From Mycobacteriales bacterium (GTDB lineage: Bacteria; Actinomycetota; Actinomycetes; Mycobacteriales; SCTD01): 64,000 nt of DNA. This document shows positions 183 to 61,368 of this stretch, in pieces. How positions within the stretch are numbered: the stretch's first letter is position 1; every line of letters begins with the position of its first letter. The stretch is from NCBI GenBank assembly GCA_030447385.1, contig JAUJOY010000006.1, forward strand, positions 77,405 to 141,404. The letters are read 5' to 3'. The notes under the pieces are model-generated. The model was not told the DNA's origin and did no database searches. It was given only the letters and a program-made list of their open reading frames with translations. The translations under genes and the position numbers were made by a program.

Positions 183-1093
183 CGCCCGATCTTCCCCAGG
201 GACCTGGCGGCTTCGATGATGAGCGCGTAGGTGTCCGCGGTGGCCGGCACGAAGCCGGTGTAGCGCTTGGGCAGCAGGCCGTTGGCCTTGCCGTCGTGCT
301 CGACCGCGAGCACCGCGGCGGTCAGGTCCTGCTTCAGGTCCGGGTCGAGGTCCTTGCGGACCGCGATCGCGTCGTTGGGCAGGTCCGGCGAGGTCCACAC
401 GATCTTGCTCTGCTCAGCCTTGATCGTGCCGGCGTCGATCATGGCGTTGCGGTTGCGGTCGAAGTCGGTGGCGAGGTCGACCTTGTTGTTGGCCACCGCG
501 GTCTCCTGCGCCGGGTGGGCGGCGCCCTCGCTGTAGTCGAAGTAGGTCTTCGGGTCGATGCCCTGCTGCTGAAGCAGGTAGGTCGGGATCAGCCAGCCCG
601 ACGTCGAAGCGGTCTCGGCGAACGACATCCGCAGGCCCTTGGCGTCGCGCGGGTAGTCGACCACCTTGGTGTCGGCAGGGGCCACGACGATCGAGTGGTA
701 GACGGGCTTGCCGTCGTACTCGACCGTGGCGATTGCCTCCGCGCCACCCTTGTCGGCGGCCAGCACGTAGCCGAACGGCCCCATCCAGGCCAGGTCGGTC
801 TTGCCGCTGGCCAGGGACACCGCGAGGCCGGCGTAGTCGCTGCTGACCTCGAGCTCGTAGTCCGCGCCGACCTTCTCGGCGATGGCCCGGAAGAACGGCT
901 CGTAGGCGGTACGGGTGTCCGCCGGGCTCGGCAGGAACGGCCCCACGGCGAAGCGGAGCGTCTCGCGCGGCGTGCTCTGCCCGGCCGCCCCCACGGCGGG
1001 GTCCTGGCCGCTGCCGCAGCCGCTCAGCGCGAACCCCGCGACAGCTGCGAGGGACAAAAAGGTACGGCGGGAGTGCGTGCGCGACATCGACAT
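179..1093 (-). CDS. phnD: Phosphate/phosphite/phosphonate ABC transporter substrate-binding lipoprotein (PhnD/PtxB family), Tat signal
   Basis: SRRTFL twin-arginine motif plus LSGC lipobox; family segments DLAWMGPFGY, ETASTSGWLIP, SPDLPNDAIAVRKDL. Confidence 0.85.
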   Translation of the reverse strand: MSMSRTHSRRTFLSLAAVAGFALSGCGSGQDPAVGAAGQSTPRETLRFAVGPFLPSPADTRTAYEPFFRAIAEKVGADYELEVSSDYAGLAVSLASGKTDLAWMGPFGYVLAADKGGAEAIATVEYDGKPVYHSIVVAPADTKVVDYPRDAKGLRMSFAETASTSGWLIPTYLLQQQGIDPKTYFDYSEGAAHPAQETAVANNKVDLATDFDRNRNAMIDAGTIKAEQSKIVWTSPDLPNDAIAVRKDLDPDLKQDLTAAVLAVEHDGKANGLLPKRYTGFVPATADTYALIIEAARSLGKIGR

Positions 1094-1114
1094 CCGATCG
1101 GGAGAGGAGAGCGC

Positions 1115-2809
1115 TCAGACAGCGCAGTTGTAGACGAGCGGCAGGGAGCCGTCCGCCCGGCGAAGGGTGAGGAAGCGCTCGACCGCGAGCCGCTTGCCCT
1201 CGGCCAGGGACACCGGGCTGTCCGGAGAGGGATGCGCGGCCAGCAGCATGTCCGGGCTGGTCTCCACGTCGGCTCCCGCGGGGTGCCAGTGCACCCCGTC
1301 GGCGGTGTAGGCCAGCTCGGGAACCGTGTTGCCCTCTCCGATCTCCGCCCCGGAGGTGGAGAACCCGCGTTGCACCAGGGGCCGCACCGCGAAGTCCTTG
1401 CCGACGATGCCCATCTGCGTGAGCAGCTCGCGCAGCGGCTCGACCTCGCGGGCGTTCTGCGGCGTCTCGGTCATGCCGACGCGCACCGGAAGCCCCATCT
1501 CCACGGCCAGCTTCAGCCCGTCCATCGCCTTCTGCCACGAGCCCCGCCCGCGGTTCTCGTCGTGCCGCGGAGGCGACGCCGCGTCGATGGAGGTCTGCAG
1601 CACGAGCCGGTCCCGGCCGGCGAGGCGCTGCAGCTGCTCGAGCCGCCAGCCCTGGTAGAGCATCCCGTTGGTGAGGAGGACGACGTCGAGGCGCTCGGTC
1701 GCGTACAGCACCATCTCGACGATGTCGGGCTCGAGGAAGGGCTCACCGCCGGTCAGGTAGATCTCGGAGAACCCCTCCATGACGGCCTCGTCGACGAGGG
1801 ACTTGACCCGCCCGAGGCCGAGGGAGCGCTTCCGGGCCTGCGGGCTGCTGGCGACCGAGCAGTAGGAGCAGGCGAGGTTGCAGTGGAAGTTGGTGTAGAG
1901 CCACAGCCGCGGCGGAAACATCGGCGAGCCGAACAGCGGCACCACCGGCAGCCCGTCGTCGACCACCTCCGGCGCGTCGGCCCACGAGACCGCCTCCTGC
2001 TCGAAGCCCGAGGGCAGGGCCGACCGGTAGAGCTGGTAGCGGCCCTTGCTGCGCTCGTACGGCGGGACGATCTCCAGGCAGGTCGTCCACCAGCCGGTCT
2101 CGACGGTCTCCACGAAGGCCTCGGGGAGGCCACCGGCGCGCATGGACGCGGCCTGCGCCTCCCAGTCGTAGGCGAGCGGGACCAGCTCGGCGCCGACGCT
2201 GCCCGCGTCGAGGTCGACCAGCGCGTACCAGACCTCGCGGCGGCCGTCGTTGGCCGGCCGGCCGAGCACGCCGACGTTGACGACCAGGCTGTCGCCCACC
2301 TGCTTCTGCCAGGGCAGTCCCGAGTGCGTGCACAGGATGAGGTCCGCGCCCGACTCCTGGACCCGCAGCGCGTGCTGCTCGTCCGACAGCGACTCCCACC
2401 AGAAGTCGTTCAGGGCGAGCGTCGACCCGTGGACCATGTGCACGTCGACGCCGTCGAGGCAGAACCGGCGCTCGGTCGGCAGGGTCGTCATCCACTGCGC
2501 GTAGTCGCGGCCCGTGTGGGCGAGCGTGTAGTCGTACATCAACTGGGCGAACTCGTTGTCGCGCGGGTCGGAGTAGCCGCAGCCGCAGTCGGTGTCCCCC
2601 CGGCCGACCGCGACGTCGTAGTTGCCGGCCACGACGGTCACGTCGGCGTCGGTCAACAGCGGCCAGACCGCGTCCGGCTCAGCGCCGTAACCCCCGAGAT
2701 CTCCGAGACAGTAGAGCTTCTCAGCTCCACGGGCCCTCGCGTCGTCCAGGAAGGCCTGCAGCGCGTAGGGGTTGGAGTAGACGCCTCCACACACCGCGAT
2801 GCGGGTCAT
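1115..2809 (-). CDS. Metallophosphoesterase-like domain fused to a radical SAM domain
   Basis: N-terminal half has LGDLGGYG, GNYD, HGS, THSG and NVG motifs. C-terminal half has CNLACSYC (CxxxCxxC), TGGEP and LLTNG. ATG at 2809 is preceded by GGAG. Confidence 0.85.
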   Translation of the reverse strand: MTRIAVCGGVYSNPYALQAFLDDARARGAEKLYCLGDLGGYGAEPDAVWPLLTDADVTVVAGNYDVAVGRGDTDCGCGYSDPRDNEFAQLMYDYTLAHTGRDYAQWMTTLPTERRFCLDGVDVHMVHGSTLALNDFWWESLSDEQHALRVQESGADLILCTHSGLPWQKQVGDSLVVNVGVLGRPANDGRREVWYALVDLDAGSVGAELVPLAYDWEAQAASMRAGGLPEAFVETVETGWWTTCLEIVPPYERSKGRYQLYRSALPSGFEQEAVSWADAPEVVDDGLPVVPLFGSPMFPPRLWLYTNFHCNLACSYCSVASSPQARKRSLGLGRVKSLVDEAVMEGFSEIYLTGGEPFLEPDIVEMVLYATERLDVVLLTNGMLYQGWRLEQLQRLAGRDRLVLQTSIDAASPPRHDENRGRGSWQKAMDGLKLAVEMGLPVRVGMTETPQNAREVEPLRELLTQMGIVGKDFAVRPLVQRGFSTSGAEIGEGNTVPELAYTADGVHWHPAGADVETSPDMLLAAHPSPDSPVSLAEGKRLAVERFLTLRRADGSLPLVYNCAV

Positions 2810-4363: not shown

Positions 4364-5830
4364 TCAGAAGGGCGGTTCGTCGTCCGCGGTCGGCGGCGGC
4401 AGCGCGCGCTCGCCGTGCGGGTCGGCCTCGGGCTCGGCCGCGGGCTTGGCGGGCCGCAGGTCGGTGGCGAGGAGGGGTCGTGGTGCCTGTCCCACGGGTG
4501 GTGGTCGTCGTGGTGGGGGTTCGGCGTCCGGGTCGACCCGTGGTGGTGGGGCGTGCGGGCTGGGTCGGGTGTAGGTCCGCCCGAGGGGCTGGTCCAGGTG
4601 GTGCTGCCGTCAAGGTGGCGCACGAGGGCCCAGTCGGTGTGCTTGGCGGCGTGGCAGCGCGCGGAGAGCAGCCCGAGGTTCCACGCGGCGGTCGGGCCTT
4701 CTGGCCAGGGGATCAGGTGGTCGCGGTGGGTGCGGGTCGAGCCGCACCCGGGTGCGGCGCAGCGCACGTCCCGCAGGTCGACCAGGCGGGCGAGGGCGGC
4801 GGACGGGTCGTGCTGCGGCTCCGCCCGGTCGGTGATCACCTCGGGCCGGTTCATCCTGAGGATCTGCTCCCGCAACCCGGATCGGGTCGGGACTGGCAGG
4901 TTCTGGACGGTCCTGCACGTGCAACGGCCGGCCGGTCTCCTCGTCGATGAGCACCCGGCGCAGCAGGGTGGGGCGCAGCAACCGGACGTGCTCAGCGGTG
5001 AGCGGACCGTAGCGGTCCATCATGCCGGGTTCGCGGGACAGCTCCAGCACGGTGCTCATCGGCACGAGCACGTTGAGCACCACCTGCGGGCGCACCTCGA
5101 CACTGGAACCTGCCACCCAACCCGGGACCGCGCCGTCTTGGGCGGCGAGGACCATCGCCGGGAGGGCGGCGAACAGGTCCGCCCGGCGCTGCTGCGCGGT
5201 GCGCTCCACCCCCGCCTGCCGGTCGCAGATGCGCTCCTTCTTCTCCAGGGTGTCCAGACCGGAGCTCCAGCTGGCCAGCTGCTCCGCGGTCAGCACCGCC
5301 CCGGCCAGTCCCAGCCCGTCCGGCTCTGGGCGGTGAGACGTGTGCCGCCCGGCGGCGGCATCGGCGTGGCGTTGCTCCGCCGCTGCTGGACTGTCCTGCT
5401 CGGCCTCGATCCGCAGCAGCGTGCGGGACACCAGCCGGCGCAGATCCGCCGGGCACAGCAGTGCCCCGTCGGGGAGCACCTCCGCCTCGACCTTCGCCGC
5501 GCGATCTCCTGCGGAGCGTGGGAGGTGACGTGCAGCAGCACCGCGGCCTGCGCAGTCAGCAGCTCCCCGCGCTCGAGCATCCCCAACGTCACCGGCAACG
5601 CCGCATACCGCTCGGCCTCATCCAGCCAACGGGACGCGGTCAGCTGGCCGACCCGCAACGACCCGGCGACCTCCAACGGCAAGAACCGCCGGGTGCCGTC
5701 CGTCCCGCTCAACGCGGCCAGGCGCACCACCGCCCGGATCCGCGAGCCCAGCTGCCGGGCGTCCGCCCGAAGGCTGTCCAGCCAGCCGTCCAGCAACGGC
5801 GTTCGACTCCGCCTCCGACGTGCTGGACAT
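4364..5830 (-). pseudogene. DUF222 (REP13E12-like)-HNH endonuclease element, frameshifted
   Basis: Pieces lie in different frames (5290-5796, 4610-5479, from 4875). HNH segment RCAAPGC...DHLIPWPEGPTAAWNLGLLSARCH; the C-terminus ends EPPF-stop at 4364. Confidence 0.8.
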
Positions 5831-5837
5831 GAGGTAA

Positions 5838-5853
5838 TCGTACATGTGTTCGA
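5838..5853 (-). promoter_or_regulatory. LexA (SOS)-like box inside a putative leaderless sigma70 promoter of the DUF222-HNH element
   Basis: Minus strand TCGAAC-ACAT-GTACGA, one mismatch to actinobacterial TCGAAC-N4-GTTCGA. TAGACA(5865-5860)-N17-TACGAT(5842-5837), then 6 nt to ATG 5830. Confidence 0.7.
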
Positions 5854-5878
5854 ACGCCCTGTCTATCGGAATCGACTT

Positions 5879-5914
5879 CTCCACAGCCTCTTTCGCCGGA
5901 ACGAGGCTGTGGAG
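5879..5914. repeat. Perfect 12-bp inverted repeat
   Basis: CTCCACAGCCTC-N12-GAGGCTGTGGAG. Confidence 0.85.
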
Positions 5915-5919
5915 CGGCC

Positions 5920-6135
5920 GGCGTGGGCAGCGGCTGGAGCTGGGTCGGGTTCGGGCTGAGGCCGGGGGGTCGGGCTGAGGCAGGGGCTGGGACTGGGCAG
6001 GGGTCGGGCTGAGGCAGGGGCTCGAGCTGGGGCGGGCGCTCGGCCTGCGGCCCGGGCTCGGCCTGCGGCCGGGGCTGAAGCGGGGACTGGCTGGGGCTCA
6101 GGGAAAGGAACGCTCCCCACCACCCTCCACCCCGA
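5920..6135. repeat. Low-complexity G-rich degenerate repeats
   Basis: Recurring GGGTCGGGCTGAGGC and GGCCTGCGGCC units. Confidence 0.6.
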
Positions 6136-55320: not shown

Positions 55321-55653
55321 CTACCCGCCGTCGGACGGCTCTGCTCGTACCAGGAACAGCCCCTCGTCGAACCCGCCGCGCAGCTCGCGCTTGCTGTCGG
55401 CCAGGTCCACGACGTCCTCGAAGGAGAGCCCGAGAGTCCTCGCCAGCGCACGGACGACCTCGACGACGTCTGCCAGCTCCTCCGGCAGCTCGTCGTCGGA
55501 GGCTGCGGCTGACTCCGCTGCTTCCTCGGCCAGCTTCTCGAGCAGCGCGGGACGACGCTCGGCCGTGGGCAGGACTTCGACGACCGGTGTCCGCCCATCA
55601 GCCGTGATGAGGTCCGGGATCCTGTCGCGCACCAGCTTGCCGAAGCCGGTCAC
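55321..55653 (-). CDS. MazG-like nucleoside triphosphate pyrophosphohydrolase
   Basis: KLVRDRIP, KLAEE, EELADVVEV, KRELRGGF; GTGA overlap with the upstream HNH gene. Confidence 0.88.
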   Translation of the reverse strand: MTGFGKLVRDRIPDLITADGRTPVVEVLPTAERRPALLEKLAEEAAESAAASDDELPEELADVVEVVRALARTLGLSFEDVVDLADSKRELRGGFDEGLFLVRAEPSDGG

Positions 55654-56774
55654 GTTGCCTCCAGCAGGGGCAGCACCTCGAGCAGTCGCGCCCGATCGAG
55701 CACGGTGTAGACGCCGGGCTCCTGCCACAGCGCGGTCCCAGACGGCAGATGCGCGTAGAGGCCGCGTGCCACCCGCTTGGAGCGTTCGAGCTGCAGCGGC
55801 CAGCCCGCGTCGTCGGCGACCTGGCCGAAGACGCCCTCGGGTCGGCTGGCCCAGCGGGTCAACAACGTGAGGTCGGCGTAGTGGTCGCGCTTGTCGTTGT
55901 TGCAGCGCCGGTCGGCCAGCACGAGGTTGCCGAGCGCGTCGTTCGGCATCCGCGACCACGGCACGAAGTGGTCGATCTCTACGTCACCGGCCGGCAGCGG
56001 CCGGCGGCAGTAGAAGCACTGGCCCGCCTGAGCCTCCCGCAGACCAGGGCCGAGTGACCGCAGGTTGACCCGGTCGCTGCCGAACAGGAACTGCCGCAGA
56101 TGGTCCTCCGGCAGCTCCTCGTTGCTGAAGCTCGCGACTGCTCGCGTCCAGTGCAGCTCCACGACTGGTCGCAGCAGGCCGCCGAGGCTGACCAGCCAGT
56201 CGCCGACGTTCGGCTTCAGCACGACGTCCATTGGTCGTTGGCGCAGCTGCCGTGCCGTCACCCCCTCGTGAAAAGGCTTGTCGTCGTAGAGGAACCGGGG
56301 ATAGTCGGCGGCGCCATTCGCCGCGTATCCCTGCGGCCGCTGAAGCTTCCCGAGCGGCATCTGCACGAGGGTGAGCTCGATCAGCCCGATTGTCTGCTCG
56401 TACGCCGTCGGCAGTGCCCGCTGCGCCCCCGCCGGGCTTCGCGCGCCGACCGCTTGGGCCCGGTTGCGCAGCGCCCGTACCGCGTCGACGGTGACAGCGC
56501 GCGGCTGGCTCGACTGCCGTAGCAGCGGGGAGCCGTCGTGGCGGGCGTACGGGCGGACCTGTGGCCAGTACAGCTCAAGCACGCGGACGGCCAGGTCCTG
56601 GACAGGGACCCGGCTGGGGGCGCGACCTTCCGCGTCAGCCGAGAGCGCGCAGCAGTCGATCAGGGCGAGCAGCACGGCGAGCTTGTAGGTGGCGGTGCGG
56701 CGTCCCTCGTCGAGGATCGTCAGCACCAGCTGCGCCCAGGCAGCCGCGTTGCCGGAGCTGCTGTCCTCGTGCAC
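55650..56774 (-). CDS. HNH endonuclease with large N-terminal domain
   Basis: TATYKLAVLLAL N-terminal motif; CFYC...IDHFVPWS...NLVLADRRCN. Confidence 0.87.
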   Translation of the reverse strand: MHEDSSSGNAAAWAQLVLTILDEGRRTATYKLAVLLALIDCCALSADAEGRAPSRVPVQDLAVRVLELYWPQVRPYARHDGSPLLRQSSQPRAVTVDAVRALRNRAQAVGARSPAGAQRALPTAYEQTIGLIELTLVQMPLGKLQRPQGYAANGAADYPRFLYDDKPFHEGVTARQLRQRPMDVVLKPNVGDWLVSLGGLLRPVVELHWTRAVASFSNEELPEDHLRQFLFGSDRVNLRSLGPGLREAQAGQCFYCRRPLPAGDVEIDHFVPWSRMPNDALGNLVLADRRCNNDKRDHYADLTLLTRWASRPEGVFGQVADDAGWPLQLERSKRVARGLYAHLPSGTALWQEPGVYTVLDRARLLEVLPLLEAT

Positions 56775-56799: not shown

Positions 56800-56998
56800 T
56801 CAGCGCTGCTCGTCCTCAGCCTCCGGCCGCGGACCTTCCGCCCGCGGACCCACCGCCCGGTGAAGCGGCGCCCGGCGCAGCCGAACTCGTTGAGCATCCG
56901 CCGTCGTGCAGCAGGCACTCGTCAGGCAGCGGGGCGGTCAGCTCGTCGGAGGACCGCGCCGGCGAGGCCCCCAGCTCGACGGTCTCGTTCGTGATCAT
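56800..56998 (-). pseudogene. Possible DUF2695-like fragment
   Basis: LTAPLPDECLL / RMLNEFGC split across frames and truncated. Confidence 0.35.
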
Positions 56999-57055: not shown

Positions 57056-57935
57056 CTACGGCCGCGTGAAGGTCCGCCACCGCTGCTCGAGCAGGTCCCG
57101 GTCGGGCCGATCGACGACGCGCCTGGGCAGCTCGAGCGTCCAGCCGTGGACGTCCTGGATGCCGTGCTTGAGCATCGGCCCGTCCACCTCGACCAGCACG
57201 TCACGGCGCACCTCTACAACGAAATCCGGACGCACGCCGAGGATGCCGCGGTCATAGGCAGCATGGTGGATCTTGCACAGCGACAGCCCGTTCGGGACGA
57301 CTGGCTGGCCGCCCTCGGCGTCGGACAGGATGTGCGCGGCGTCCAGCAGGTCGACGTGCCGAAGCCGGCAGATCGCGCAGGCCCGCTCGTACGCCATCAG
57401 GACTCGAGCCCGGAACACCGGCTGGTGCAGCCGAAGCTTGGTGAGTCGCTCGGCGTATTCCCGCGTGTCGGCGGTAGGCGCCGATCCCGCGAGGAAGCGC
57501 AGGTTCTCGTCCAACGCGATCTCGACGAATCGACCCACCGGGTTGTCGGCGACGACGTAGACCGGAAAGGTCGGGACGAATACCCCAGGAGCGATGCCCT
57601 GCAGCAGGACGAGCGGCAACCCCAGCTCCGCGACGCGGCGGAGCTTGCGGTTGTCGCCGCCATCGGGATCGCCGTCCCGGTAGGCATAGCGCAGCAGCCC
57701 GTCCTCCGTCTCGGCGTCGTCGTACGGCCCCTCCGGTTGGCTCAGGATCGACAGGGTGGCCGCCAGCTGCCGGGGGTTGCGGATGCCGCGGCTCTGGTCG
57801 ATCAGCTTGAGCCGCTCGCTGCCGTAGGAGAACGCCTCGAGCTGAGCCCGCGTGACCACTCCGCCGGGACGAGGCCATGAGCTGGGCGAGGTAGGCCATC
57901 GCCGACCGGCGTACCTCGAGCTCGTACAGCAGCAT
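57056..57935 (-). CDS. HNH endonuclease with SRA/PUA-like N-terminal domain; frameshift near 57870
   Basis: FRARVLMAY..CAIC...LLDAAHI...NGLSLCKIHHAAYD. The start frame (ATG 57935) shifts in a C-run into GGVVTRAQL. Confidence 0.8.
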
Positions 57936-57988: not shown

Positions 57989-58930
57989 ATGACCCGCTGC
58001 TTTCCGCCGAACCCCGAGTTCGGCAGAGGCCGGCACGGCGAGCGCGCCGTGTGGGAGGCGCTGAGCGCGCACCTGCCTGACGAGGCAGCAATCCTCTACT
58101 CGCGCTGGATCGTCGAGGAGGCTCGTGAGCACGAGATCGACGTGCTCGTGGCCTGGCTCGGGATCGGCTCGCGGCGATCGAGGTCAAGGGCGGTCATGTC
58201 GAGCGCGACGCGCGGGACCGCTGGTGGAGCAACCGGGGACACGACAGGCGCCAGATCGCGCACCCGCTGACCCAGGCCGCCGACGCGCGGCACGCCCTGC
58301 AGCGGCACCTGGCGAGGGCCCCTCGCGCTCGACTGGGGTGCGCCGCCGCCGAGTGGCGACGAGAGCGACTACTACGAGCAGGAGCTCCCGCGGGCGCTCG
58401 GTGAGCTGGCGCTCGGTCGACCAGTCGCTGAGCGATTAGAGGCCGTGGTCGTCGACGAGGCGCAGGACTTCTGCGAGCTGTGGTGGCCCTCGCTGCTGTC
58501 CTGCCTGAAGGACCCCGACTTCGGCGGCGTCTACGTGTTCCTGGTCGCGGCGCAGCGCGTGTTTCAGCCGGCAGGCCGAGCCACCGATCTCGATCCCGCC
58601 GTACGTGCTCTACGACAACATCCGCAGCACCAAGCGCATCGCGCAAGGTGTTCGGAGCCTCGGCGCGGAGCAGGGCGCGTACGCCGGGATCGAGGGGCGC
58701 CGGTGCGCTTCGTGCAGTGCGCCCCGCAGGAGGCGACCGGACGCGCCGACGATGCCGTCGACGCCCTGCTGAACGACTGGGCTCCTGGGCACGCCCTGTC
58801 CACCACCAACCACCGGCACAACCTGCCGCACGAGGTCGTGGGCAATCAGGGCTGGAACGCCTACTGGGACGGCTTCTTCGCCGAGGACGACGTCCTCTAC
58901 GGGCACGTGCTCGGATTCAAGGGCCTGGAG
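57989..58930 (+). pseudogene. NERD nuclease-UvrD-like helicase, degraded
   Basis: GERAVW...EIDVLV..IEVKGG (NERD) and VVVDEAQDF...FKGLE (helicase) in several frames; the middle is missing. Confidence 0.7.
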
Positions 58931-58991
58931 CCGTCTCCGCCGACCGGGCGGAGCCTCGGTGCAGGGCGTCGGCAGCTTCATCCGCTCCAGC

Positions 58992-59047
58992 CAAGATCCT
59001 CGGAACTTCCACAGCATTCCCGTGCTGTGGAAAGGCCGAAGATCTTG
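58992..59047. repeat. REP-like palindromic element, copy B
   Basis: AAGATC...TTCCACAGCA-TTCCCG-TGCTGTGGAA...CCGAAGATCTTG. Confidence 0.7.
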
Positions 59048-59131
59048 AAGACGGGGATCGTCACAAGGACCGCTGCGCCGAGGACCGTGATGGCGGCAGG
59101 TGCCGCGGCGCCATGACCGGCCGATCCAGGC

Positions 59132-60523
59132 TCAGCCCTGCAAGACCGCGGCGATCGAAGGGCGCGGCGACCGCCCGGACGGAAGGACCTGCTGGACCCG
59201 CCGCAGCGCCTCGACCTCCGAGGTCCCAGTGACCAGGGCGCCGTACGCGGCGGCGACCACCGGGGTGCGCGTCTGCGCGTGCACGCAGTGCAGCAGTACC
59301 GACTTGCCCTCGGCACGCAGCGCCTGGACCGCCGCCGCGGCATCCGTGACCGCCGCCCGCAGGTCGATGTTCGCGTCCTCCTTGTCCACGATCCACACCT
59401 CGATGTGGTCCTGCGGCGCCACGCCCTCGAGCGGGACATCGTCGCCGAGACGGCAGAGGCTGACGACAGCATCCGCGACTCCCGGCCGCAGCGTTCCCAC
59501 CGCACCGAGCAGGACCCCCGGGTCGTCCGGGTGCGCCACCACCTCGCCGGCGGCGACCGCGTACGTCATCGTCCCTGGCCAGCCGTCCTGGTCGGGCCGG
59601 CCCTGGCCCACCGTCAGCAACGCCAGCCGGCTCAGGTCCCGGGCGCGCAGATCCGGCCAGCCGTGCAGCAGCCGGCGCCAGCGGAACGGCACCGCGCTCC
59701 CCCCATGCCTCGCTCCGAGAAGAGCGCCCGCGATCGACGCAACCGTGTCGGTGTCGCCACCGCCTGCCACGGCCGCGACCAGCCCTGCCTCCAGGGTCGA
59801 CGTGTGCGTGATGGCCGACCACGCGCCCTGCAGGGCGGAGACGACCCAGCCGTTGCTGTGCGCCAAGTGCGACGGCTCGAGCGCCTCCGCCTCCTCCAGC
59901 AGCGCGCCCCATGTCGCGTCCACCCGCGGGAGTCCGACGTGGACGTCGAGCTCCCCGGTGCGTACCGCAGTGTCGATAGCCAGGCACCACAGCACGCACG
60001 CGTCTCCTGCGACAGGGTCGTGATGGGTCAGCTCGCTGATCGCCCGCGCCGCCCCGGCGAGAGCGTCGGGGTCACCGAGGTGGGCCAGCGCGACGGGCGA
60101 GGTGCGCATGAGCGATCCGTTGCCCGCGGTCCTGCCCGTACGCGCATGCAGATGCGCCGCGGCGGCCCGCAGCTGTGGCGCGACCGGCCCGTCCCCCACA
60201 GCCGACAGCACCCTCCGGGTCTGGATGCCGACATCGGGCGGGTCGGCCGCGCACCACCCGAGAAAGCCCTGCGCCACAGCCTCCAGCGCCTCCTCGCTGC
60301 CCAGGTCGGCGCCGGTGGCAGCGACTCGGGCAATGACGGCAGCCATCTCGGTGTCGTCGCTCCACTGCCCAGGAGCCAGGCCGCCGAGCCCACCGCCGAG
60401 CATCTGCGGCTCGCCCTCGACAGGACGCGAGCCGTACTCGTACGGGACGCCGAGGGCATCACCGGCCGCGGCACCCAGCAGGGCACCGACCGCACGGTCA
60501 GCCTGTTGCGGGGACAGGCGCAT
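59132..60523 (-). CDS. ADP-ribosylglycohydrolase fused to a Cys-based (CX5R) phosphatase domain
   Basis: GDALG, WSDDTE, GNGSLMR, GGDTDT; C-terminal LLHCVHAQTRT. Confidence 0.9.
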   Translation of the reverse strand: MRLSPQQADRAVGALLGAAAGDALGVPYEYGSRPVEGEPQMLGGGLGGLAPGQWSDDTEMAAVIARVAATGADLGSEEALEAVAQGFLGWCAADPPDVGIQTRRVLSAVGDGPVAPQLRAAAAHLHARTGRTAGNGSLMRTSPVALAHLGDPDALAGAARAISELTHHDPVAGDACVLWCLAIDTAVRTGELDVHVGLPRVDATWGALLEEAEALEPSHLAHSNGWVVSALQGAWSAITHTSTLEAGLVAAVAGGGDTDTVASIAGALLGARHGGSAVPFRWRRLLHGWPDLRARDLSRLALLTVGQGRPDQDGWPGTMTYAVAAGEVVAHPDDPGVLLGAVGTLRPGVADAVVSLCRLGDDVPLEGVAPQDHIEVWIVDKEDANIDLRAAVTDAAAAVQALRAEGKSVLLHCVHAQTRTPVVAAAYGALVTGTSEVEALRRVQQVLPSGRSPRPSIAAVLQG

Positions 60524-61368
60524 CAGGCCGCCACCAGCTCGTGCCGGCGGTTCACCGCGACGGCGTGCACGGCACGATCCCGCCACAGCAGTCCGCCGAG
60601 GTGTGCGTACGGCGAAGCACCGCGCACGCCGGTTGCTGCTCCCGCCGGCTGCTCCACGACGGACACCGACTCCAGGCGCCCGACGAACCGCCGCGCCCGC
60701 CGTCCGGGAGTTGCGACTGGCGCGGCACCTACGGCGTCGAGAGCCACCGAGCTGAGCAGCGCCTGCCAGGCGGAGGCCAGGGTGCGGGGGGAGTCGAAGA
60801 CCTCCAGCAGCAGCGGCTGGCCGCTGATCCCGACGAGGACGCCGCACTGGTGCGGCAGCGGGCGGACACCGGCGAGCAGTGCGTTCGCCGCCTCCTGGGC
60901 CCGCCTTGTCGCGTCCAGCAGGGAGTGCGTGTCACTGCGGTCGTAGCGCTGCTCGTAGCGGTTCACCTCGGCCCACACGGCGCTCTGGTCGCGGACGGCG
61001 CGTACGGAGGTCGGGGCCCGGCGGCCTCCACGGTGGTGCCGCGCCGCGCCGGACCAGCGGCCCTGCTCCACGCAGGAGACGTCCAGCACGAGAGAACTCC
61101 CGGCGTCGATCAGGACCGAGCGGGAGCAGACGCGGTGCTGCTGGCCGCCTTCGAGCAGCTCGCCTTCGAGGAGAAGCGCGGGCCGCTTGCCCGCGTTGGT
61201 CACCACGAGCTCCCCGACGACGGCTGAGCCGGCCCGCTCGCTCACGTCCAGGTCCGACGTACGGAGGTCGTAGCCGCGGCTGGCTACGGCCGCGCCGTTC
61301 CACACCGGGAACAGGCTCAGCGCACCGCGATGCAGGGGCTCGCCGAGGTGGAGGTCGAGGAGCTTCAT
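60523..61368 (-). CDS. ARPP-1 / DUF6569 family protein
   Basis: LVVTN...LLLEGELLEGGQQHRV...SCVEQGRW; stop overlaps the ARG start. Confidence 0.8.
   Translation of the reverse strand: MKLLDLHLGEPLHRGALSLFPVWNGAAVASRGYDLRTSDLDVSERAGSAVVGELVVTNAGKRPALLLEGELLEGGQQHRVCSRSVLIDAGSSLVLDVSCVEQGRWSGAARHHRGGRRAPTSVRAVRDQSAVWAEVNRYEQRYDRSDTHSLLDATRRAQEAANALLAGVRPLPHQCGVLVGISGQPLLLEVFDSPRTLASAWQALLSSVALDAVGAAPVATPGRRARRFVGRLESVSVVEQPAGAATGVRGASPYAHLGGLLWRDRAVHAVAVNRRHELVAA

Follow-up and report, generated by a model that had tools for sequence, protein, structure and literature searches.

Restriction-type nucleases encoded beside nucleotide hydrolases are known from three passing mentions in the literature (PMC3141236; PMC5714182, which probably concerns another family; PMC13092281). 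At least 60 SauUSI-like enzymes are reported to be linked to putative pyrophosphohydrolases of unknown function, and the SauUSI partner is described as resembling pyrophosphohydrolases and MutT/NUDIX hydrolases (Xu et al. 2011, PMC3141236). The bacterial 'Group 23' of His-Me finger proteins is encoded beside MazG-family genes, its function was stated to be unknown and it has no Pfam, CDD or SCOP entry (Jablonska et al. 2017, PMC5714182). In 2026 MazG was placed among the predicted, unvalidated defence domains (PMC13092281). A literature search found no tested explanation of why a restriction enzyme should need a nucleotide hydrolase. Here an overlapping gene pair of this kind was analysed in a soil actinobacterium, a Mycobacteriales bacterium, using a window of 64,000 nucleotides (contig JAUJOY010000006.1, positions 77,405 to 141,404) to which all coordinates without a locus number refer. 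The pair encodes an HNH nuclease and a MazG-like nucleoside triphosphate (NTP) pyrophosphohydrolase, and we put the chance that the two form a functionally linked, mobile, restriction-type module of defence islands, consisting of a nuclease and an accessory nucleotide-pool enzyme, at somewhat better than even. An anti-phage effect of the pair is what we infer from this arrangement.

The nuclease gene occupies 55650–56774 on the minus strand, from a GTG start at 56774 to a TGA stop at 55650–55652, and its translation of 374 residues has the same length as a 99%-identical database entry. Homologues were retrieved in more than 470 clusters at 90% identity. The catalytic core of the HNH (His-Me finger) type lies at residues 253–299 (55878–56018, minus strand), where Pfam HNH_4 (PF13395) scored 39.5 bits against a cut-off of 22 (E = 5.7e-10) and PF01844 scored 27.3 bits against a cut-off of 21.4. 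The core has the arrangement CFYC...DH(268–269)...N283...C291-N292, in which Cys253, Cys256, Asp268, His269, Asn283, Cys291 and Lys295 are invariant in alignments of both 19 and 70 members, and Asn292 is invariant in the 19 and nearly so in the 70. Locally the sequence reads EIDHFVPW...GNLVLAD..CNNDK, a pattern shared with the Cas9 HNH domain. An AlphaFold2 model of the whole nuclease gave a mean predicted local distance difference test score (pLDDT) of 91, and Foldseek aligned this model with isolated Cas9 HNH domains at a probability of 1.0; matches of the whole model in the PDB and among viral models were confined to the HNH core of Cas9 and other HNH proteins. Both the profile match and the catalytic residues within a beta-beta-alpha fold therefore place the protein among the HNH/His-Me finger nucleases.

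Residues 1–245 (56040–56774, minus strand) form a basic N-terminal domain with an isoelectric point (pI) of 9.0, which is mainly alpha-helical and was modelled at a mean pLDDT of 87 when folded alone. An earlier note on this DNA had described an HNH protein with an uncharacterised front domain carrying a TYKLA motif, and this description was borne out. The motif is the most conserved element of the nuclease family and is part of an invariant G-RRTA-TYK-LA loop, with Gly24, Thr29, Tyr30 and Lys31 invariant among 70 sequences and Arg25 to Ala28, Leu32 and Ala33 nearly so. The domain alone retrieved 1074 representative clusters at 50% identity. Pfam gave zero family matches to residues 1–245, a Foldseek search of the domain against the PDB gave no counterpart (best E ~1, TM ~0.2), and a sequence profile of the nuclease compared with all PDB chains found the HNH part alone. 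These results make the front domain a conserved module, basic and for the most part helical, without a described relative, and it is presumed to be the target-recognition domain.

The partner gene (55321–55653, minus strand) encodes a protein of 110 residues assigned to the COG4997-type, all-alpha NTP pyrophosphohydrolases by Pfam, homologues and PDB profiles. As the earlier note had proposed, the partner is acidic and of MazG type, with a pI of 4.3 and 25 Asp and Glu residues compared with 13 Lys and Arg residues. The Pfam MazG profile (PF03819) was matched marginally, at 22.9 bits against a cut-off of 22, while MazG-like (PF12643) and PRA-PH (PF01503) fell just below their cut-offs; a relative of the partner in another locus, L118, reached 32.1 bits for PRA-PH against a cut-off of 21.3. 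Among 108 homologues several carry the JGI label 'predicted house-cleaning noncanonical NTP pyrophosphatase (MazG superfamily)'. The best PDB profile matches were all weak and comprised the phage enzyme MazZ (7ody, E = 1.7e-3), HisE and YpjD-type proteins. PADLOC and PHROGs contained no match for the MazG-like protein, and their matches to the HNH protein were at the level of the core. In an alignment of 44 sequences Lys6, Leu7, Arg9, Asp10, Glu44, Glu59 and Asp62 are invariant and Glu43, Glu47, Glu65, Lys88, Arg92, Gly93 and Phe95 nearly so. The EExxE...ExxD arrangement formed by these residues is the metal-binding site known from all-alpha NTP pyrophosphatases, maintained by purifying selection, and the ExxE...ExxD pattern was found in eight of the nine MazG partners at nuclease loci. 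With both a profile match and the metal-binding motif the partner falls within the MazG/all-alpha NTP pyrophosphohydrolases; that it depletes nucleotides is an assumption.

The two genes meet in a translational-coupling junction at 55650–55662 on the minus strand. The tcac at 55650–55653 of the plus strand is the GTGA of the minus strand that the earlier note had pointed out, in which the TGA of the nuclease overlaps the GTG of the hydrolase. It is preceded, across a spacer of 4 nucleotides, by a GGAGG Shine-Dalgarno sequence at 55658–55662, so that the ribosome-binding site of the hydrolase gene sits inside the nuclease gene. A 4-nucleotide overlap was present in four of six related loci (GTGA in three and ATGA in one), the gaps in the other two being 2 and 15 nucleotides, and because of this recurrence the GTGA overlap is no chance feature. 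In L025, too, another gene (5225–6007, minus strand) overlaps the nuclease gene at its 3′ end; McrBC flanks the nuclease there, and the overlapping product is a DUF6884 plus DUF7662 protein and not a hydrolase.

The distribution of the pair was examined by a scan of one genome per species, many of them incomplete metagenome-assembled genomes, which returned 267 nuclease loci from Actinomycetota, Myxococcota, Acidobacteriota, Gemmatimonadota, Planctomycetota and other phyla. Partners were tallied with our own MazG and HIT profiles on the best 80 of these 267 loci together with the loci collected earlier, giving 93 family members of which about 83 were assessable and 10, lying at contig ends, were left unjudged. 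Neighbouring open reading frames were chosen by a heuristic based on GC content at third codon positions (GC3). Within the clade of the window a hydrolase gene lies directly downstream in all six assessable loci, in unrelated surroundings; contigs bearing homologues at 79%, 56% and 53% identity each carry a gene of ~107–112 residues at this position in three unrelated neighbourhoods. The pair stands beside NERD and HNH_2 genes in L011, after recC/recB-like genes in L013/L031, and ahead of genes for a PLD protein and a DEAD-helicase-DUF3427 protein in L014. Across the family a MazG-like gene is adjacent to the nuclease in 9 of the ~83 assessable loci (six downstream and co-directional, two divergent and one convergent), and 23 loci have a HIT hydrolase, which has an unrelated fold, either fused to the nuclease or next to it (~15 fused or upstream in the same direction, seven divergent). 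The His triad HxHxHxx was intact in all 25 HIT sequences that were checked. More distant nuclease relatives, at ~30% identity and with the front domain covered, are carried on proteobacterial plasmids, and HIT-HNH pairs were found on the betaproteobacterial plasmids of Aromatoleum, with a 4-nucleotide overlap, and Polaromonas. In some distant relatives the nuclease is coupled to a TehB/TPMT-like class I methyltransferase gene, located upstream in Pseudoalteromonas and downstream in Roseomonas. These S-adenosylmethionine (SAM) methyltransferases of ~200 residues are 41% identical to one another, give weak TehB/TPMT matches and overlap the nuclease (L122 4357–6098; L126 2965–4621), and they may represent a third kind of partner. 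Separately, the gene at 931–1866 (minus strand) of L111, in genome G358, encodes a MazG-like domain fused to a phosphoribosyltransferase (Pfam Pribosyltran, E = 2e-12) and is located immediately downstream of a gene for a UvrD-like helicase.

A tree of the family was obtained by a quick maximum-likelihood search, with Shimodaira-Hasegawa-like approximate likelihood ratio (SH-aLRT) values as the sole measure of support. The clade of the window, comprising six MazG rows and two rows that could not be assessed, has a support of 99. A second, well-separated MazG clade has divergent or convergent gene order. Its sister group, joined to it in a clade with a support of 100, carries HIT divergently, and this relationship points to displacement of one hydrolase by the other in place. 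Well-supported branches force at least two changes for MazG and at least four for HIT, and the partner labels are far more clustered on the tree than shuffled labels, none of 500 shuffles being as strong. Linkage to a nucleotide hydrolase thus arose repeatedly and in differing gene orders. Co-conservation, which the earlier note had offered as a check, holds within the clade of the window and is partial at the level of the family.

These results bear on the alternative that the two genes are independent island residents, a stand-alone restriction nuclease and a house-cleaning NTPase with no joint function. Each family does occur without the other and defence islands pack unrelated genes tightly, as this explanation would predict. 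The overlap with its internal Shine-Dalgarno sequence was nevertheless retained in four of the six relatives, down to 53% identity and in differing surroundings, fusions of this nuclease family with HIT occur across many lineages, and the repeated origin of the linkage and the clustering of labels are poorly accommodated, so that independent residence is considered unlikely. Two unrelated hydrolases have been recruited repeatedly and irrespective of orientation, with active sites intact and with instances of fusion and of displacement in place, which is an argument for enzymatic action on a nucleotide, as opposed to the binding of a protein alone, being what benefits the nuclease lineage. The literature search found no description of the front domain, of the alternation of MazG and HIT on this nuclease, or of any experiment.

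The genomic surroundings were compared by clustering neighbours within 2.5 kb of the nuclease. The most frequent clusters were HNH_2 proteins like that encoded at 57056–57935 of the window (14 loci) and HIT proteins encoded as separate genes (14 loci), followed by NERD proteins (8 loci), SauUSI-like PLD-helicase-DUF3427 proteins (6 loci), candidate DUF2075-like proteins, identified by reading their sequence (4 loci), and a second, DCTPP1/MazG-type gene (3 loci). McrBC flanks the nuclease on a Marinomonas plasmid as well as in L025, and integrases flank it in L017. On the Acinetobacter baumannii plasmid pPUMA0052_1 a distant relative is followed by a bacteriophage exclusion (BREX) operon (WYL protein, DUF1819, DUF1788 and brxC; L120 4941–10912) and has a large integrase gene on its other side. 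The neighbourhoods are defence islands composed mostly of modification-dependent restriction genes. In L118 (6764–11303), from a genome of the same order as that of the window (G139), a MazG-like gene of the same subfamily as the partner is divergent from a gene for a protein of 1330 residues, which from its sequence appears to combine HIT, PLD nuclease, superfamily 2 helicase and DUF3427-type regions with an S24/LexA-like C-terminal part, and which lies between an SMC-like ATPase of 834 residues and a McrB-like AAA protein of 812 residues. What appears to be the same kind of S24/LexA-like appendage is seen in a member of the nuclease family, P0275 (560 residues), as an extra Peptidase_S24 domain after the HNH. 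The distribution of the nuclease is patchy: it was found in 10 of 401 Actinomycetota genomes and in one of the 19 other congeneric genomes, with one copy in the genome of the window. The MazG-like family occurred in 7 of the 401, and at the cut-offs used both were present in the genome of the window alone.

MazG and HIT proteins are classical house-cleaning and repair enzymes, and the pair follows recC/recB-like genes in L032 as well as in L013/L031; an accessory DNA-repair or pool-sanitation module, in which the hydrolase clears a damaged nucleotide and the nuclease nicks DNA containing that nucleotide, was therefore considered. Such a module is hard to reconcile with a distribution that is very patchy even within a genus, with carriage on plasmids and beside integrases, and with neighbours that are restriction and BREX genes and not repair genes, and we regard it as improbable. 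Since HNH genes are often mobile, a selfish homing-type element was also weighed. The nuclease is present as one copy in the genome, is not inserted in other genes and retains a large conserved N-terminal domain in a stable architecture, and no match to its family was found in 50,697 phage records; a homing element is accordingly regarded as far-fetched.

The neighbours being mostly modification-dependent restriction enzymes, and the same hydrolases being found on a SauUSI-like enzyme, the most economical model is a restriction nuclease with an accessory nucleotide-destroying enzyme. In this model the effector would be a single-chain DNase, with the Cas9-type HNH core at its C-terminus presumably cutting DNA, and the basic, alpha-helical N-terminal domain of 245 residues would choose the target, perhaps in dependence on DNA modification. 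The translationally coupled gene would supply, in a fixed ratio to the nuclease, a MazG-like NTP pyrophosphohydrolase that is probably catalytically competent, and in other lineages the unrelated HIT hydrolase, or in distant relatives perhaps a TehB/TPMT-like methyltransferase, would do the same job. The partner may act on a non-canonical nucleotide, of phage type or otherwise modified, and so starve the invader; by keeping this nucleotide out of the host chromosome it would also let the nuclease spare self DNA. This specific mechanism of guarding the nucleotide pool is given roughly half the confidence placed in the linked restriction-type module as such.

Several observations weigh against a linked restriction-type module. 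Neither hydrolase was found in 51 of the ~83 assessable loci, counting as without partner those with no match to the two partner profiles within 400 bp, and a Pfam tally of the 86 nearest neighbours at these loci gave no common substitute; in most lineages, therefore, the nuclease functions with no linked partner. Conversely, six of the seven genomes with the MazG-like protein gave no nuclease match at a cut-off of E ≤ 1e-20. The small SAM methyltransferase beside distant relatives could point to a different logic, and genes may come to lie together in defence islands without being functionally linked. PADLOC and NCBIfam, the former suggested as a check by the earlier note, recognised no known system; their Cas9 and PtuB models matched the generic HNH core alone. 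PDB fold and profile searches showed no resemblance of the N-terminal domain to a known modification reader, and Pfam, fold and profile comparisons found none of the recognised type IV reader domains (SRA, EVE/PUA, DUF3427, SBD or McrB-N) in the nuclease. We know of no HIT enzyme that acts as a sanitiser of deoxynucleoside triphosphates (dNTPs), so that a single substrate shared by MazG and HIT partners is a conjecture.

The frequency of loci without a partner bears equally on a toxin-immunity or abortive-infection pair, in which the acidic helical partner would restrain the HNH DNase, as Im proteins do colicin DNases, until the toxin is freed on infection, with death of the cell. In favour of such a pair are the small size, acidity and all-helical structure of the partner and the overlapping start, which would lead to 1:1 synthesis with a basic nuclease. 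An inhibitor would not, on the other hand, be expected to keep invariant catalytic residues, nor to be replaced by HIT, which has another fold and an intact active site and is not another inhibitor. Some partners are encoded divergently from the nuclease or convergently with it, an arrangement uncommon among antitoxins, the MazG-like family is found away from the nuclease, and pairing is evidently not obligate. We consider a toxin-immunity pair quite unlikely, slightly more so than independent residence. The earlier note had proposed a two-gene restriction or abortive-infection system; the co-conservation in the window's clade, the defence islands and the patchiness are in keeping with a two-gene system, and the non-obligatory partner argues against a strict toxin-antitoxin or abortive-infection pair.

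A more specific form of the linked restriction-type module may be put forward tentatively. The N-terminal domain may constitute a new type of reader, for a non-canonical base or a DNA modification, and the MazG-like, HIT and methyltransferase partners may each neutralise the matching free nucleotide; this is possible, though we hold it to be doubtful. HINT-type HIT enzymes desulfurise nucleoside phosphorothioates, and on this basis thio-modified, or otherwise modified, nucleotides from degraded invader DNA are suggested as a candidate substrate.

Directly upstream of the pair is the HNH_2 gene of 57056–57935 (minus strand), which encodes a TagI/VcaM4I-like nuclease of the modification-dependent restriction type and agrees with the placing of the pair by the earlier note in an island with other nucleases. 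Its C-terminal part matches Pfam HNH_2 and NCBIfam PT-DNA_restrict, and its profile matches TagI (6ghs) and PDB 6yex, an 'HNH endonuclease' that we take to be the EVE-HNH enzyme VcaM4I. Alignment placed the first ~40 residues, which begin with the ATG at 57935, in another frame, the conserved N-terminal helix …RRSAMAYLAQLMASSRRSG being separated in this way from the rest, VVTRAQLEAFSYG…, which is in the next frame. The gene thus probably carries a frameshift of 1 nucleotide near 57860, and could be a pseudogene, reflect an assembly error, or be translated from an internal GTG into a truncated protein. An open reading frame of 60 residues (56816–56998, minus strand) in the interval separating the two nuclease genes has a near-perfect Shine-Dalgarno sequence (AAAGGAG, spacer, ATG) and a Gly/Ala/Ser-rich tail; it had no counterpart in any related locus and was rejected as a member of the module. 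No cognate DNA methyltransferase gene is adjacent in the window and no DNA-methyltransferase cluster was found among the neighbours, yet the TehB/TPMT-like genes are coupled to distant relatives.

Further upstream, the region 57989–59116 (plus strand) contains several broken frames with a helicase-like 'VVDEAQDF' motif at ~58445. The region may be a decayed NERD-helicase gene, but a NERD match at 57989–58270 was below threshold (16.4 bits against a cut-off of 22.1) and no similarity to the NERD gene of the sister locus was found. Genes for an ADP-ribosylglycohydrolase, a dual-specificity phosphatase or both recur near the nuclease family, at 59132–60847 of the window, at 4853–5443 of L011 and at two loci without a partner. 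The GC content between 55.1 and 59 kb is 0.69–0.73, mostly ~0.70, compared with ~0.72–0.745 in the flanks, a difference too small for recent transfer to be argued from base composition.

The family provides a clean test case, as a small unit of two genes with an intact and mutable active site in each, and offers natural variants in which the partner is MazG, HIT (either fused or as a separate gene) or absent. A hydrolase that shields the host from its own nuclease, or that eliminates nucleotides specific to phage, would add a nucleotide-pool layer to restriction biology; if the hydrolase proves dispensable, the recurring linkage would still need explanation. Should the front domain be a reader and the partners neutralising enzymes, the pair would exemplify a general immune strategy of a nuclease plus nucleotide-pool guard, in which the guard shields the host chromosome from its own modification-dependent nuclease, and the long-unexplained linkage of pyrophosphohydrolases to SauUSI-type enzymes would be accounted for in the same way. 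A new DNA-reader domain usable as a tool is a possible yield.

When the pair was compared with described systems, Septu proved similar in that the PADLOC PtuB models match the HNH core. This match covers ~55–70 core residues, however, the N-terminal domain is unrelated and no ATPase gene of the PtuA type flanks the pair, which sets it apart from Septu. The similarity to Group 23 is that His-Me finger proteins adjoin MazG-family genes in both cases. Group 23 is described as having no Pfam entry, whereas the nuclease here clearly matches HNH_4, and it therefore probably belongs to another group. The likeness to TagI, VcaM4I/TspA15I and ScoMcrA, modification-dependent endonucleases that combine a reader and an HNH in a single chain (Lutz et al. 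2019, PMC6765204), lies in an N-terminal non-catalytic domain followed by a C-terminal HNH. A TagI/VcaM4I-like enzyme moreover adjoins the pair here and the nuclease at 13 other loci. Unlike those enzymes, the nuclease has an N-terminal domain that is not SRA, EVE, PUA or SBD-like by sequence or fold, and an HNH of the Cas9/HNH_4 and not the HNH_2 type.

Human DCTPP1 and other all-alpha NTP pyrophosphatases clean modified dNTPs from the nucleotide pool. The partner shares its superfamily and metal-binding motif with DCTPP1 and MazZ, a DCTPP1/MazG-type second gene being found near the nuclease in the three loci noted above, and differs from them as a member of the COG4997-type subfamily with an N-terminal KLVRDRIP element. 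Compared with SauUSI, the nuclease here is a single HNH protein lacking helicase, PLD and DUF3427 regions, and its partner is MazG-like. In both systems the gene for a small nucleotide pyrophosphohydrolase is linked to that for a restriction-type nuclease. Modules of the same MazG-like and HIT kinds lie beside or are fused to the SauUSI-like PLD-helicase-DUF3427 protein of L118, and SauUSI-like genes are themselves neighbours of the HNH family in six loci.

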